Source: a phage. Taken from it: 64,000 nt of DNA. How positions within the stretch are numbered: position 1 is the first letter of the stretch; each line of letters begins with the position of its first letter. Under the pieces are notes generated by a model that saw only the letters and a program-made list of their open reading frames with translations, did no database searches and had not been told where the DNA came from. Below are positions 10,917 to 64,000 of the stretch, piece by piece. The position numbers and the translations under genes are program-made. The stretch is from sequence record NC_135728.1. One strand, written 5' to 3'.

Positions 10917-11542
10917 GAGAGCGTCTATTATCCATAGACCAGTCGTTGACACACACAGCTTGCGTTGTATGGGACGATGGAAAGCCTGTTCATAAGGTTG
11001 TGTTACGAACTCAAAGCTCATCTGCAAAAGAGAAGAAACCAGGGACGGTTTCTTTTGCAACAGCTGCTGAGCGCATTGACTGGATCTGCAAACAGGTCAG
11101 ATATTATATCCACACGCACGGAGTTGACACCGTGGTTATGGAAGGGCTTTCCTTTGGATCACGCGGTGATGCCACACGTGAGCTGGCTGGGCTGTTTTAC
11201 GGTCTTGAAATTATGCTTTGGGATGCCTTAGCTGATTGTGAAAATGACGGCCTGTTTAAGGTCCACACAGTGACACCAACAACTGCCAAAAAGTTTGCTC
11301 GTAGTCATCTTCCTGAAGAACTTGCTTTTGAGGAGAAGAAAAAGCTTGACAAAAAGACAGGTAAAGAGCATACTGTGAAGAAACCTGTTACAATGGATAA
11401 AAAGTTGATGGTTAAGGCCTGCGAAGTATCTGAACCTGGGTTCCTAGATGGGATCAATTTGGTACAAGGTAAGGCCGATCTCGCAGATGCTTATTGGATA
11501 GGCAGGGCTCATCTGGAGGGATTATCGCAAAGCGTAAAATAA
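10913..11542 (+). CDS. RuvC-like Holliday junction resolvase
   Basis: SIDQSLTHTACVV, VVMEGLSFGSRGD, C-terminal ADLADA; ATGA overlap with upstream gene. Confidence 0.6.
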   Translation: MRERLLSIDQSLTHTACVVWDDGKPVHKVVLRTQSSSAKEKKPGTVSFATAAERIDWICKQVRYYIHTHGVDTVVMEGLSFGSRGDATRELAGLFYGLEIMLWDALADCENDGLFKVHTVTPTTAKKFARSHLPEELAFEEKKKLDKKTGKEHTVKKPVTMDKKLMVKACEVSEPGFLDGINLVQGKADLADAYWIGRAHLEGLSQSVK

Positions 11543-12099
11543 GAAAGAAAGCTGTCAAAGCCCCAGTTCATAACGGGTGGTTAAAAGATTCTAAGGACAT
11601 AGCCAACTTTCGAAAAGAATTGTCAGAGGAGCAGGATGGTCTTGATCCGATCTTGTGCGAGCCACTTCGTAAGCCTTGTTTAGATCATGATCATCTGACT
11701 GGTCGTTGCAGGGGTGTTTTGTCTCAATGCACTAATACCTTTGAGGGATATGTGCTTAAATACTGGATGAAATACTGTAACGAGTATACAGATTGCAGTT
11801 TATCAGAGGCGTTGCGCCGGATGGCTGACTATTTGGAGAAAGACTACAGCGACTTCCCGCTCCACAAAAACTACAGAGATGATATGACAAAGTTCTTGAG
11901 GAGATGCTCTAAAGCTACGATTATTGCACGAGCAGAATCAGATCTAAATCTTGTCATTAATCCGGAGTGCACCAAGCATGAGGCTATTGAGTTCTACATG
12001 CAGGAGTTTATAAAGAAAACTGAGGAGAGAGATTTCTATGGGGATGAAAAAGGTATTCAATCCTTGCGACTCAGTCCTGATCAGGATGAAATACCGTAA
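11494..12099 (+). CDS. endonuclease VII-like HNH nuclease domain protein
   Basis: CLDHDHLTGRCRGVLSQCTN (DHxHxTGxxRGxLxxxCN); only start available in frame is TTG at 11494 with no RBS, 48 nt inside previous gene. Confidence 0.5.
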   Translation: MDRQGSSGGIIAKRKIRKKAVKAPVHNGWLKDSKDIANFRKELSEEQDGLDPILCEPLRKPCLDHDHLTGRCRGVLSQCTNTFEGYVLKYWMKYCNEYTDCSLSEALRRMADYLEKDYSDFPLHKNYRDDMTKFLRRCSKATIIARAESDLNLVINPECTKHEAIEFYMQEFIKKTEERDFYGDEKGIQSLRLSPDQDEIP

Positions 12100-13255: not shown

Positions 13256-13263
13256 CAATTATA

Positions 13264-13291
13264 GGGAGGCTTGCGCCTCCCTTTTCCTTTT
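13264..13291 (+). terminator. rho-independent terminator
   Basis: GGGAGGC-TTGC-GCCTCCC followed by TTTTCCTTTT. Confidence 0.6.
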
Positions 13292-13300
13292 GGAGGCACT

Positions 13301-14119
13301 TTGAGCAAGAAAGAGTCCAACGACAAATATTACACAAACCCTGAGTATGCAGAATATCTTGTTGGTAAAGTAAAAGACAAGTATGGGAATTGTGCATACG
13401 TTGAGCCTTCTGCTGGAAGGGGTTCTTTTTCAAAACTATTTTCAAAGATACTGTCGTACGATCTAGTACCAGATCCTGAATTTGAAGGACCAACACAGTG
13501 CATTCAGGCAAACTTCTTGGAGGTGCATCCTAAGGCAGATGTCTTCATAGGTAACCCACCATTTGGCAAGAATTCATCTTTAGCTTGCAAATTCTTTAAC
13601 CATTGTGCATCATTGCTAGAGCTTGGCGGGGCTATAGCCTTCATCTTGCCACGGACATTTGAAAAAATATTTTTTGCAAACAAACTGGACATGTCTATGC
13701 ACCTTGTCTACAGCGAAAGGTGCCCTAAGAACTCGTTTTTACTTAATGGCAAACCTTACGACGTGCCATGTGTTTTCCAAATTTGGGAGAAAAAGGCGTG
13801 CAATAGGGATCCTGTAGAGATTGGAGAGAATAAGTTATTTTCTTTTAGCACTCCGGATGACTACGACTTCTGTGTAAGACGTGTTGGGTATAATGCTGGA
13901 AAAGTATTGGGGGATGATGACCCAAAATCTGAAGAATCGACATATTTCATAAAATCTTTAGTTGACGGTGTTGACAGAGTGTTTGCCGAATGCTATTCTT
14001 CTTTTCAAGAAGAAGCAGGTAAGACTGCTGGAATGAAGAGTATAGGCAAGAAAGAACTACAATACATTTTGGAGACCCGGTATGATCAAAAGCATAGACT
14101 TGACCAAAGAACTTACTGA
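13301..14119 (+). CDS. N6-adenine DNA methyltransferase
   Basis: Motif I-like EPSAGRGSF then motif IV IGNPPFGK; start uncertain (TTG at 13301 after GGAGG; track start lies inside the terminator hairpin). Confidence 0.7.
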   Translation: MSKKESNDKYYTNPEYAEYLVGKVKDKYGNCAYVEPSAGRGSFSKLFSKILSYDLVPDPEFEGPTQCIQANFLEVHPKADVFIGNPPFGKNSSLACKFFNHCASLLELGGAIAFILPRTFEKIFFANKLDMSMHLVYSERCPKNSFLLNGKPYDVPCVFQIWEKKACNRDPVEIGENKLFSFSTPDDYDFCVRRVGYNAGKVLGDDDPKSEESTYFIKSLVDGVDRVFAECYSSFQEEAGKTAGMKSIGKKELQYILETRYDQKHRLDQRTY

Positions 14120-14540
14120 TGCAAAAGCTTTTGGTGAGACAGCGGTACAAAGAGGCCAGGCGATGGGACTGGCACTACCTTTCGTCTTAAAAGAGCACTT
14201 TACAGATTTTCAACTTATCAAAGGTGATAAGGGAATGCTTATCCTGGAGCATAAGTTGAGTAAGAAACGCTACAAAGTTGTTTTTAATTCTAAAGCCCCA
14301 ACAAAACTTGGATTCAGAACTTACAATCTCAACCCATCCTATACTAAGGGTGTTGGAAGGGTAGAACAACAGCATTTCAGTGCTAGAGCTTCTTTAGCCC
14401 CTTTGATGCTAAATTTCTCAGGAGTGGCTTTAGGATACCTTGATAAGAAAAGAGTTCTTCATGTCCGTTTCACAGACTTTGTAACGCTTTTAGCTAACAA
14501 CGAAGTTGATGAAAAGGGACGTGTAAAAACAAACTTCTAA
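14082..14540 (+). CDS. hypothetical protein
   Basis: Track ORF, GGAGAC RBS. Confidence 0.5.
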   Translation: MIKSIDLTKELTDAKAFGETAVQRGQAMGLALPFVLKEHFTDFQLIKGDKGMLILEHKLSKKRYKVVFNSKAPTKLGFRTYNLNPSYTKGVGRVEQQHFSARASLAPLMLNFSGVALGYLDKKRVLHVRFTDFVTLLANNEVDEKGRVKTNF

Positions 14541-27702: not shown

Positions 27703-27725
27703 AGCCCTCTTCGGAGGGCTTTTAT
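27703..27725 (+). terminator. rho-independent terminator
   Basis: AGCCCTC-TTCG-GAGGGCT followed by TTTT. Confidence 0.7.
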
Positions 27726-27740
27726 GATCTGGAGATTTGC

Positions 27741-28274
27741 ATGACTTGTGCTAGAAAACCTGATGAACAACGTAACGCATACGATGAGTATGTGACACCG
27801 GAGTGGTGTGCAGAAGGGCTGTATGACCTTATTCCGTTCCCAGAGGACTGGACCTACTTAGAGCCTTGCAGGAATAGTGCCTCAGGTGTGTTCTACTCCC
27901 GTATGCCGTTAGGATCTGCATGGGGAGAAATCCAAGAAGGTGTTGACTATCTGAATACAGAATACAACCATGTTGACTGTATTATCACCAACCCACCATA
28001 CAGTCTGGCCCGTGAGTTTGTAGACAAGGCGTTGAAAGATGCTGACGTAGTTATTATGCTTTTGCGTCTTAATTTTCTGGAAAGCAAAGCCAGATTTGAA
28101 TGGTGGCTTGATAATGCACCTACCACTGTGATCACAATATCTAAGCGTCCATCATTTCAATCAAATGGTAGAACTGACGGGCAAGCATATGCATATTTTG
28201 TGTGGGATAAGAAAAACCGTTTAGACTTGCCGCCATTTATGTGGTTGGCACCCCCAGAGGTAGACCTGAAATGA
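27741..28274 (+). CDS. small Dam-like N6-adenine DNA methyltransferase
   Basis: CIITNPPYS (NPPY motif IV) in a 177 aa protein. Confidence 0.65.
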   Translation: MTCARKPDEQRNAYDEYVTPEWCAEGLYDLIPFPEDWTYLEPCRNSASGVFYSRMPLGSAWGEIQEGVDYLNTEYNHVDCIITNPPYSLAREFVDKALKDADVVIMLLRLNFLESKARFEWWLDNAPTTVITISKRPSFQSNGRTDGQAYAYFVWDKKNRLDLPPFMWLAPPEVDLK

Positions 28275-29263: not shown

Positions 29264-29497
29264 ATGAAAGTTAAATTTCTTACAGATTTAGGGTACCCTT
29301 CCTTGGTTGACTGTGTTGGTAAAATTGTGGAAGCAAAACGGCTATCTGCAAACGAGAATGTTGTCATGGTTAAGGGAAAAGATTTATTAGCTGCAGGTGC
29401 AGAGTCTGGCAGGGTCTCTCCTGACTATACGTATTACCTGTCTTTAAGTAATCTACCAGAACGAGGCGGCAAAGGCCTTGAAGTTGTGGAGGAGTGA
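29264..29497 (+). CDS. small acidic protein, paralog family A
   Basis: MKVKFL... start, acidic VVEE C-terminus; GTAGGAGG RBS. Confidence 0.5.
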   Translation: MKVKFLTDLGYPSLVDCVGKIVEAKRLSANENVVMVKGKDLLAAGAESGRVSPDYTYYLSLSNLPERGGKGLEVVEE

Positions 29498-29502
29498 CAG
29501 GT

Positions 29503-30027
29503 ATGCTTCTGATTAACTGGGAAGACCTCTATGGGGACAAAGACCCTGTTGCGTTTGTTGATCGTAGATGGAGATATACTGAAGAACAACTGGCTGCAAA
29601 AAATTTAACTGCAAAACGCAGAAAGATCATCCAGTGCAAGTATAAATACGCACAGTTTGCTGCAAAAGTGTCTCCCCAAATCGAGAGCTTTGTGCTTAAA
29701 TTGTATGACGAGTACCTCAAATTCAAACTGGATTTTGTACAGGTATACCGTGCACAGATACGCCCAGATACCAGCATTTGTAGATGGAAGGTTGTTTGTG
29801 ACGGTAAAGATTTGCCACTCAGCTTGACAATTGAGCAGCGTTGGGGGTATCATGAGTGCGGTCTGTATGAGACTTGGGATGTCATTGTAGATCCTGCTAA
29901 GTACCTGAACACAGAGGAGCTGGAATATATCAATAAGGTTATTCTCGATATGTTTTTCAGATACACCTGTGAAAACTCTGAGAAAGAACGGGATAATTTT
30001 CTTGACACCATCAGCAACCATCTGTAG
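29503..30027 (+). CDS. hypothetical protein
   Basis: ATG after GGAG (track start is GTG at 29494). Confidence 0.5.
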   Translation: MLLINWEDLYGDKDPVAFVDRRWRYTEEQLAAKNLTAKRRKIIQCKYKYAQFAAKVSPQIESFVLKLYDEYLKFKLDFVQVYRAQIRPDTSICRWKVVCDGKDLPLSLTIEQRWGYHECGLYETWDVIVDPAKYLNTEELEYINKVILDMFFRYTCENSEKERDNFLDTISNHL

Positions 30028-62207: not shown

Positions 62208-62483
62208 CAATAGTTCAGGTAGGTCGTTAAGCTACCCCGCACCATTACGTGCATAGCCATACGTTTTCACGTAGGATCGGACCATCTCATATTCCTATGA
62301 TAAGCAACCACAGGAATCCTCCCATTTCGACCGCACTTGCTGGTCTACTTCCTTTCGGAATGGCCTCTGAGCGTTCGCTCTTTTGAGCGCTTCGTTGCGG
62401 ATTACCTTGCCATAAGGTTTAGGCTTCCCGCAGTTAAAGAGGTTATTCGACATAGATTACTCTATGAAGCCACAATGTTATTT
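62208..62483 (-). ncRNA. putative group I self-splicing intron (276 nt) in the DNA polymerase gene
   Basis: Interrupts the ORF between the H and D codons of motif C; exon ends in U, intron ends in G; GUGG guide 11 nt into intron can pair with exon CCAU; P-like CUGCGGGAAG, Q-like AAUCCGCAAC, P7 strands GACCA / UGGUC. Confidence 0.65.
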
Positions 62484-64000
62484 ATGGTAATAAATAATAC
62501 GACGAACACCTTCATCGTACCACCCACGCTTCACCATTTGGTGGTGCATGAGTATCCCAACTAAGTCACACAGCGATGCACCACCATTTTGTTGGTATGC
62601 ATTAAGTAAAGAGTGTTTAGATCTGGTCCAGATAGCATGACCATCGAAAGAGTAGATAAACTTCTTACCTGTTGCTTCCCAGAATTTCTCCAGATCCTCT
62701 TTGCGCCCCTTAAGACCGGGGTTGGCATCCCAAAGTGCATCTATTACCCTTTGCCCCAACTCTGGAGAGATGTCCAACATATCTGCAACTTTATCTTTTT
62801 GTGCCCCGTACATAACACCATACGTGATAGGTTTACCGTCGTTACGGGACACCTCTCTGCCTGCTACTTTTGTATATGCCTCGGCATTGTTTTGGTGTGC
62901 GTCTCCGTTACTTACAACATCATAATACAGGCCGTTGTCGAACTCAAAGGCACCCCAAGCCCCGATAAGCTGCTCTAAGTTGGACCCGTCAATACCGATC
63001 TGAAAGTATCCGGGAGGAACACCCCATAGACTACGCATCTCTTTACCCATAACCACTTTAGGAGATGGTTTAGGCATGTTTGCACAAATACTGTGTTTCT
63101 GTCTGGAAGTGTTTGTTAGCCCAGAACTTTTAGCAGGAAGCTTATGGTCAATCTTCAAACGTGGGTGATTAAGAAGACCAGTATCAACCTTATCCTCCTT
63201 GATTGGGTCAAGGACCGATCTGCGGTTTCGCAATGATAACCACAAGACGATATCTTTAGCCATCTCTCCGTTCAATTTTTCAAGATTCGGACACAGGTGT
63301 CCAAACGTATCTTTCAGTTGCGGAGAAGTAATAAGTGCCCTGGCTTTTCTACGTATTTTCCCGAACACTTCCTTTTTAATCCTTTCGGAGTTAGGAAAGC
63401 TTCGGAACTTGTGCACGGTTGTCTGGAACTTAGCATCAGTTTTGTTCCAGAAGTTGATAATTAGGTCACAATACTCTGACTCTAAAAGCTCGTCCATATA
63501 AGCATATACTCGTGCATCAACATCTGCATCAGGTAGAGCTTTCTTCTTGCTGTCTTTAGTTACATCCTTAGTTCTCCACATTGTCGGGAGCCAGCCAGCG
63601 CTGATCAGATACCGCTTAATGTCGTCCTGATTGCTGATTTTCATAGGTATCTTGCAGTCCGGCATTCGCTTCTGCTGTAGATCACTTATTGCCTGATCCA
63701 TCAGCTCTTTAGGCAAAGGGTGTGGTGTGGAAGTTCCCTTAATATAGCCTCTCAAGAAATCAGCCATCTTATCGGGGTCTTTGCAGCCCATCTCTTCACA
63801 CCATTTTATCCCCATCTTGCTGACATCCCCTGTAGAGGTAAATGCTCTCTTAGGCGGGGCTTTGAACTCTAAAGCGCTCATGTCTACAGGATAGCCAAGC
63901 TTATCTTTTAACCATTTCCAACCATTATTAGAGATTGTCCCGTCTTGGTTAAACGGCTTTTCAGGGAACTTGGGCCGCTGAGACATTGACAGCTCTTTTA
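62484..64000 (-). CDS. DNA polymerase family A, exon 1 (partial; N-terminus may lie beyond the window)
   Basis: Motif B-like KPITYGVMYGAQ; ends ...VRRIIYYH (cf. Pol I RMIMQVH-DE); reading frame stays open upstream of the track start at 63986. Confidence 0.8.

Follow-up and report, generated by a model that had tools for sequence, protein, structure and literature searches.

Which adenines do the methyltransferases of this phage modify, and what does the modification serve? The question is raised by a 64,000-nucleotide stretch of phage DNA (sequence record NC_135728.1; the whole stretch is here called the window), in which two open reading frames (ORFs), referred to as ORF A and ORF B (table 1), had been predicted to encode orphan N6-adenine methyltransferases that protect phage DNA against host restriction, the presence of two distinct enzymes suggesting more than one methylated motif. 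The overall best explanation, which we regard as likely, is that both are S-adenosylmethionine-dependent gamma-class N6-adenine methylases modifying phage DNA, ORF B at GATC and ORF A at GTAC.

The window belongs to a Vequintavirus, that is, an rV5-like Escherichia coli myophage. Round both genes, the sequence shares 99.5% identity with Escherichia phage MiataMamis (Vequintavirus) and 95-99% with some 120 genomes of Vequintavirus (rV5-like), and the whole window aligns, in reverse, with positions 138189-71571 of Bas51 (Escherichia phage WalterGehring, MZ501111), a BASEL phage with approximately 95% identity to it. Both ORFs are present where they had been placed, and both genes are real, intact and under purifying selection, with ratios of nonsynonymous to synonymous polymorphism (pN/pS) of 0.075 for ORF A and 0.018 for ORF B in six to eight related genomes.

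No other ORF of at least 90 amino acids in the window carries a [DNS]PP[YFWH] motif. In ORF A, motif X (DKYYTNP, D8-T12) precedes motif I (VEPSAGRGSF, E35-F43) and motif IV (GNPPFG, G84-N85-P86-P87-F88-G89), so that the predicted succession of motif I and NPPF is indeed found; in ORF B the corresponding segments are DEYVTP (D15-P20), LEPCRNSASGVF (E41-P42) and TNPPYS (N84-Y87), the last containing the predicted NPPY. These motifs are invariant across diverse homologues (n=62 for ORF A and n=54 for ORF B). Both proteins show the motif order of the gamma class, namely X, I, IV with any target-recognition domain located C-terminally, as well as a TaqI-like class I Rossmann fold, and their AlphaFold2 models are confident (mean predicted local distance difference test scores of 92.7 and 88.6, respectively). 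We conclude that ORF A and ORF B are gamma-class N6-adenine methyltransferases, albeit with an identity of just 15-20% to characterized enzymes of the class (M.TaqI, M.BseCI, MmeI, CamA and type I HsdM). Neither reaches the curated Pfam gathering thresholds of N6_Mtase, Eco57I, EcoRI_methylase or Dam PF05869; for ORF B the scores are 20.1 bits against 26.4 for EcoRI_methylase and 19.2 against 28.1 for PF05869, and that of TIGR01712 (NCBIfam) is 16 against 97. Matches in PHROG are strong, ORF A falling in family 5172 (unknown function) and ORF B in family 799 (DNA methyltransferase). Single-sequence searches of solved-structure sequences with the two ORFs returned nothing useful, and a fold search of BFVD gave no hint of specificity, its matches being phage proteins without a name and large DarB-like fusions.

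The target of ORF B is provided by Bas51, where the region matching the window contains two genes annotated as N6 adenine methyltransferase, bas51_0176 and bas51_0200. The former is identical to ORF B at 176 of 177 residues (V174A is the sole difference), while the latter, the ORF A orthologue, differs from ORF A at 3 of 272. Bas51 escapes the retrons Asa1 and Squ1 through mutations in an "N6 adenine methyltransferase", of which D69G, D79G and T83P were engineered; nanopore sequencing of virion DNA with N6-methyladenine calling revealed the motif GATC, which was nearly lost in the T83P mutant (PMC12548924). Because bas51_0176, like ORF B, carries D69, D79 and T83, whereas bas51_0200 has Q, A and I at these positions, the published retron trigger is the orthologue of ORF B. 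In a profile alignment the three residues fall on the M.TaqI segment ...ADFL...FDLILGNPPY, which is involved in cofactor binding and catalysis; the three escape mutations would thus map to the cofactor-binding and catalytic loops. In wild-type Bas51, 1405 methylated adenines lie in GATC, 509 in GTAC and 576 in other contexts, compared with 35, 511 and 349 in the T83P mutant (PMC12548924 supplement). The Bas51 genome holds 703 GATC sites (1406 adenines) and 258 GTAC sites (516 adenines), and since 1405/1406 and 509/516 of these were called, both motifs are methylated at approximately 99-100% of their adenines, counting the two strands; with host Dam as the only enzyme, the share at GATC is about 2%, as read from the 35/1406 left in T83P. 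The virion DNA therefore bears more than one methylated motif, as had been anticipated, and a phage DNA free of adenine methylation, the observation named beforehand as fatal to the proposal, is not what Bas51 displays. ORF B is the phage's own GATC methylase, an activity already characterized in this near-identical phage.

The original prediction described ORF B as Dam-like, which is right for function and not for family. Its product, G(m6A)TC, is that of E. coli and T4 Dam and of the PF05869 and TIGR01712 enzymes, and PF05869-type enzymes are likewise small phage proteins. Alpha-class Dam (Pfam MethyltransfD12), in contrast, has the order motif I, target-recognition domain, motif IV, with DPPY, and differs in this from the gamma-class ORF B, for which no MethyltransfD12 match was found at E values up to 1; the PF05869 score, as seen above, is below threshold. 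A profile of ORF B homologues matches M.TaqI best among solved proteins (3.8e-6), with adenine methylases of types I and II ranking next, and PADLOC MTase_II is reached at 1e-3 only, through a model other than PDLC03255. M.TaqI has 421 amino acids and ORF B only 177, with no separate target-recognition domain, and the phage enzyme is essentially a bare catalytic domain. It is thus a functional analogue of Dam and not a demonstrated member of the family. A gene 1.2 kb downstream of ORF B (29494-30027, + strand) is the orthologue of the Bas51 "putative glycosidase" bas51_0171, in which a premature stop, R87*, is the second mutation required for escape from retron Asa1 (PMC12548924).

In the case of ORF A, the family context is informative. 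The protein matches PADLOC MTase_II PDLC03255 at 1.7e-34 over practically its full length (residues 8-253 on model positions 2-249 of 269). Scanning bacterial genomes gave 80 loci with ORF A homologues, patchily distributed across taxa; when the adjacent genes were clustered, three small-ORF families unrelated to one another emerged, located 0-7 nucleotides downstream of the methylase, on the same strand. Two of these families match PADLOC REase_II (3.9e-10 for one, 9.6e-15 to 2.7e-18 for the other), and the third shows a PD...ExK-like signature and a weak match to PDDEXK_3. None has a name in Pfam, NCBIfam or PDB; the two identified, by PADLOC alone, are poorly described restriction enzyme families. 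Bacterial systems composed of MTase_II PDLC03255 and REase_II PDLC03550 or PDLC03460 thus offer the closest parallel, with a methylase matching ORF A and a restriction gene directly downstream. Among phages, Phapecoctavirus carries an ORF A homologue between primase/helicase and DNA polymerase I. Compared with M.TaqI, ORF A has a C-terminal extension of only about 90 amino acids, and its C-terminal 90-100 residues align solely with DNA methylases. From these comparisons, ORF A appears to belong, as a new member, to a type II methylase family that is widespread but has no name.

Methylation of GTAC in Bas51 does not depend on ORF B, as the nearly equal wild-type and T83P counts indicate. We know of no GTAC methylase in E. 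coli K-12, and hence a phage enzyme must be responsible. Only three Bas51 ORFs contain amino-methylase motifs: the orthologues of ORF A and ORF B, and bas51_0070, an intact beta-class ORF of 441 amino acids with DPPF and FGGSGTT motifs and a Pfam N6_N4_Mtase match of 4e-42, whose nearest relatives among solved proteins are type III Mod subunits (EcoP15I Mod, 2e-24). Enzymes of the type III Mod family usually recognize asymmetric sites of 5-6 bp and methylate one strand (hemimethylation). Because a small type II enzyme is a more natural candidate than a Mod-type one for a short palindrome that carries methyl groups on both strands, we favour ORF A over the Mod-like enzyme as the most likely source of GTAC methylation, read as GT(m6A)C, although with moderate confidence only. 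The same product is made by the GTAC-specific M.HpyAXII, M.CviQI and M.PabI (PMC2588503); judged by its published description only, M.HpyAXII is a short gamma-class enzyme (331 amino acids) whose catalytic N87 is close to the position of N85 in ORF A. These enzymes have active restriction partners (R.HpyAXII and R.PabI being half-pipe glycosylases) that are unrelated to the neighbour of ORF A discussed below. At the bacterial loci, GTAC is the most depleted palindrome beside type 2 and type 3 partners (observed/expected 0.62 and 0.44), only a weak hint to the specificity of ORF A given that these loci come with no gene-free control and that GTAC is generally scarce. Two metagenomic methylome papers contained no link of ORF A to the known GTAC methylases, and the rV5 genome paper makes no mention of methylation; Korf 2019 and the BME3 paper are uninformative on this point, and those on Zorya/Druantia and Eco2 have no bearing on it.

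Two observations on the phage genomes stand beside this question. GTAC is under-represented in the window and in Bas51 (observed/expected 0.66 and 0.59, respectively, under a Markov model), similarly to CTAG, and GATC shows no depletion (1.08 and 0.99). In addition, Bas51 encodes further methylases a few kb past the end of the window, at 64456-65781 (L011:14456-15781) and 67042-67806 (L011:17042-17806), one being the type III Mod-like adenine enzyme and the other annotated as a Dcm-like C5-cytosine methylase, with no Pfam match. The full phage probably has four methylase genes, not two; both predicted N6-adenine methylases are such, and the number two is true of the window but not of the phage as a whole.

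We now turn to the absence of an adjacent restriction endonuclease. Scans of the flanking ORFs with Pfam, PHROG, NCBIfam and PADLOC identified a single nuclease, an endonuclease VII resolvase (11494-12099), and gave no nuclease signal among the neighbours of ORF B. Neither methylase is thus part of a complete type II system, with an adjacent endonuclease of intact catalytic residues, and both are orphans in the sense that no active cognate restriction enzyme is found nearby. For ORF B the predicted absence stands as it was made; for ORF A it stands as regards any recognizable active nuclease, but not as regards ancestry, since the 152-amino-acid ORF that follows (table 1) is related to restriction enzymes. 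This partner ORF shares 38 nucleotides with the 3' end of ORF A and, with a pN/pS of 0.009, is the one among the three genes on which purifying selection is strongest. Its relatives are very few, a handful in two very large protein libraries, and every one of those found adjoins an ORF A homologue: downstream of the methylase in every Vequintavirus genome, directly upstream in Phapecoctavirus, and upstream, with an overlap of the methylase's start, in two TARA marine contigs (which share one sequence), one JGI contig and one ENA contig. The profile of the family matches the type 3 bacterial partners, and hhalign between the two families gives a probability of 95% (E 3.9e-8, 98 columns); the bacterial partners in turn match PADLOC REase_II PDLC03550. 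By this profile evidence, the 152-amino-acid ORF is homologous, if diverged, to a family of type II restriction enzymes from bacteria, and it differs from the PDLC03550-type partners in two respects. It may lie on either side of the methylase, and it is devoid of the putative catalytic residues: the invariant E44, D65 and E75-x-K/R77 of the bacterial family, which are PD-(D/E)XK-like, are replaced by P33, I54, K65 and V67, and no acidic residue is invariant in the phage family.

The 152-amino-acid protein is probably non-catalytic, judging from these replacements. It gave no direct match to the restriction enzyme model, Pfam, NCBIfam or solved structures. A candidate nuclease motif, D49...E56-x-K58, was dropped, the relatives not conserving the pattern. 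A resemblance of the type 3 partners to R.PvuII, the sequence used being confirmed as that of PvuII, reaches an hhalign probability of just 9% over 29 columns round D...ExK and is not evidence of homology. In some GenBank records (navn, APECc02) the ORF carries the label "putative DNA N6-adenine methyltransferase", apparently by an error of annotation. Because the gene is kept under strong selection beside the methylase, with the nuclease residues lost, some non-nucleolytic role is to be expected. Most simply, ORF A would descend from a restriction-modification pair captured by phages, in which the restriction gene lost its putative nuclease residues but was retained. Beyond this, we tentatively put forward, as a proposal that we hold at somewhat short of even chances, that the small protein is the dead restriction-enzyme descendant of a captured type II system, kept for a new methylase-tied job. 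It might be a specificity factor or bind DNA in a sequence-specific manner, or it might serve as a dominant-negative decoy poisoning related host restriction enzymes. That ORF A and its neighbour instead form an active phage restriction-modification pair, cutting unmethylated host DNA as in chloroviruses, would agree with an adjacency conserved in five lineages, with the homology to a type II restriction enzyme family and with the intense selection on the small protein; the replaced residues, and its failure to match any restriction enzyme model, Pfam or NCBIfam family or solved structure directly, make such an activity highly improbable.

Several points weigh against the explanation of two methylases acting at GATC and GTAC, the most general being that all methylation data come from Bas51 and are extrapolated to the present phage. 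The scores of ORF A in Pfam are sub-threshold (Eco57I 16.3 bits against a cut-off of 25.3, MTS 15 against 23), and its profile matches, among solved sequences, Ta1320 (2.7e-4) and METTL5 (0.04), both of the RNA m6A family, ahead of M.TaqI (0.1); several of its homologues are named "predicted RNA methylase" by JGI. Many ORF A homologues are listed with PF26055, which we take to be the EDM2 methylase domain. That ORF A is instead an RNA N6-adenosine methyltransferase resembling METTL5/COG2263, with rRNA or tRNA of the host or the phage as its substrate, is nevertheless very unlikely: the protein shows none of the attributes of that family (a significant match, a compact core of about 200 amino acids, a housekeeping distribution), whereas it matches a type II DNA methylase model along its whole length and has a C-terminal region that aligns with DNA methylases only, bacterial homologues translationally coupled to type II restriction enzymes and a patchy, mobile element-like distribution, and some phage enzyme is required for GTAC methylation. 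Sequence evidence as a whole points to DNA, not RNA, as the substrate. The assignment of GTAC to ORF A was made by elimination, with bas51_0070 still a candidate, and only two motifs have been reported for three putative adenine methylases (PMC12548924). If bas51_0070, an intact ORF with a strong DNA methylase match, made GTAC methylation, ORF A would either modify another, rarer or degenerate motif within the "other" class, where 349 methylated adenines have no assigned motif in the T83P mutant, or be poorly active on virion DNA. We consider this rather unlikely. Those 349 or so sites are about what would be expected of an asymmetric 5-mer in 140 kb (approximately 275), the kind of site normal for the type III Mod relatives of bas51_0070, which methylate one strand; GTAC is a palindrome methylated at about 99% on both strands; and the ORF A family pairs with small type II restriction enzymes, as suits a short palindrome.

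The remaining difficulty for our explanation concerns function. Vequintavirinae are reported, from plating assays, as "exceptionally susceptible" to restriction-modification and as apparently having no protection that is effective (Maffei et al., PMC8594841). Because of this sensitivity, protection cannot be broad and is at most site-specific. None of the restriction systems tested there is known to cut GATC or GTAC. The anti-restriction role first proposed is plausible but unproven, and the sole demonstrated biological consequence of ORF B activity is a cost: the activity of bas51_0176 triggers the retrons Asa1 and Squ1, and its over-expression is toxic (PMC12548924). The same enzymology might hence have been selected for something else, GATC methylation serving avoidance of MutH or the timing of replication, packaging or transcription, and GTAC methylation being a relic of the captured system. 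Besides the restriction sensitivity itself, this agrees with the scant coverage by host Dam (35 of 1406 GATC adenines), which would leave GATC unmethylated and exposed to MutH by default, with the location of both genes in the replication/nucleotide-metabolism module, and with the retention of an ORF B-type methylase although retrons are triggered by it. On the other hand, Bas51 methylase mutants plate only 2-3-fold lower on K-12 (PMC12548924), so that an essential role is not apparent on that host, no phage process is known to depend on GATC, and the strong purifying selection acting on both ORF A and the partner ORF speaks against a relic. We view a non-restriction function as possible, if on the unlikely side. 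Under the explanation that we prefer, both enzymes would modify the phage's own replicating DNA, with the target adenine flipped into the NPP(Y/F) pocket and the methyl group supplied by S-adenosylmethionine, as in the family at large. The likely role, and the least certain part of the proposal, would be a narrow, site-specific masking and not general anti-restriction: GATC methylation would shield the DNA from MboI/DpnII-type enzymes and MutH, and GTAC methylation from GTAC-cutting and KpnI-type enzymes.

Table 1. Features of the methylase loci in the window, and bacterial loci of the partner families.
Feature	Position	Strand	Description
ORF A	13301-14119	+	272 amino acids, TTG start; gamma-class type II N6-adenine methyltransferase, target probably GTAC
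ORF B	27741-28274	+	177 amino acids; minimal gamma-class N6-adenine methyltransferase, GATC; D69, D79, T83-N84-P85-P86-Y87
Partner ORF	14082-14540	+	152 amino acids, PHROG 9938; own GGAGA ribosome-binding site at 14071-14075
Terminator-like hairpin	13263-13282	+	AGGGAGGC-ttgc-GCCTCCCT then T-run; consensus scan and sequence reading; terminator annotated at the same place in Murica
Ribosome-binding site of ORF A	13292-13296	+	GGAGG, 4 nucleotides 5' of TTG; also annotated in Murica
Loci of the three bacterial partner families	L017, L020, L035, L040, L042, L058, L072; L074, L080, L081, L086, L087, L091; L021, L054, L066, L067

ORF A is flanked by a DnaQ-like exonuclease gene on one side and a deoxynucleoside monophosphate kinase gene on the other, and its TTG start is that annotated in related phages; ORF B directly follows a ClpP-like protease gene, with the same flanking genes in Bas51. 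Directly upstream of each methylase gene lies a GC-rich hairpin with T residues after it. The one upstream of ORF A, located between the exonuclease gene and the methylase, passes the terminator scan, while that upstream of ORF B (approximately 27704-27721, + strand) fails it, the T-run being too short. These hairpins might keep the expression of toxic enzymes low. Elsewhere in the window, Rfam identifies a group I catalytic intron at 62258-62493 on the - strand (64.7 bits, E 4e-14), within a region matching the DNA polymerase gene, which the Bas51 annotation gives as joined from two pieces, with homing endonucleases. Additionally, some 20 GenBank records (MG0656xx) labelled as Campylobacter jejuni phages (C2, C5, D1, A141 and others) are 98% identical to the present phage, and their attribution to a Campylobacter host looks doubtful.

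What is at stake differs between the two genes. In ORF B it is nothing new, the orthologue being already known as a GATC methylase and retron trigger. In ORF A, the published yet unassigned GTAC methylation of Bas51 becomes a one-gene hypothesis, and the conserved, strongly selected and apparently inactive restriction-enzyme homologue at its side is the sole unexpected element. Methylation of Vequintavirus DNA at GATC and GTAC matters when widely used therapeutic-candidate phages are cloned, mapped with restriction enzymes or analysed by nanopore, as well as for the host defences that these phages evade or trigger. If our proposal for the partner ORF is true, the locus of ORF A would represent a phage-domesticated restriction-modification pair instead of a simple orphan methylase, and a functional 152-amino-acid protein would show phages repurposing both halves of a restriction-modification system.

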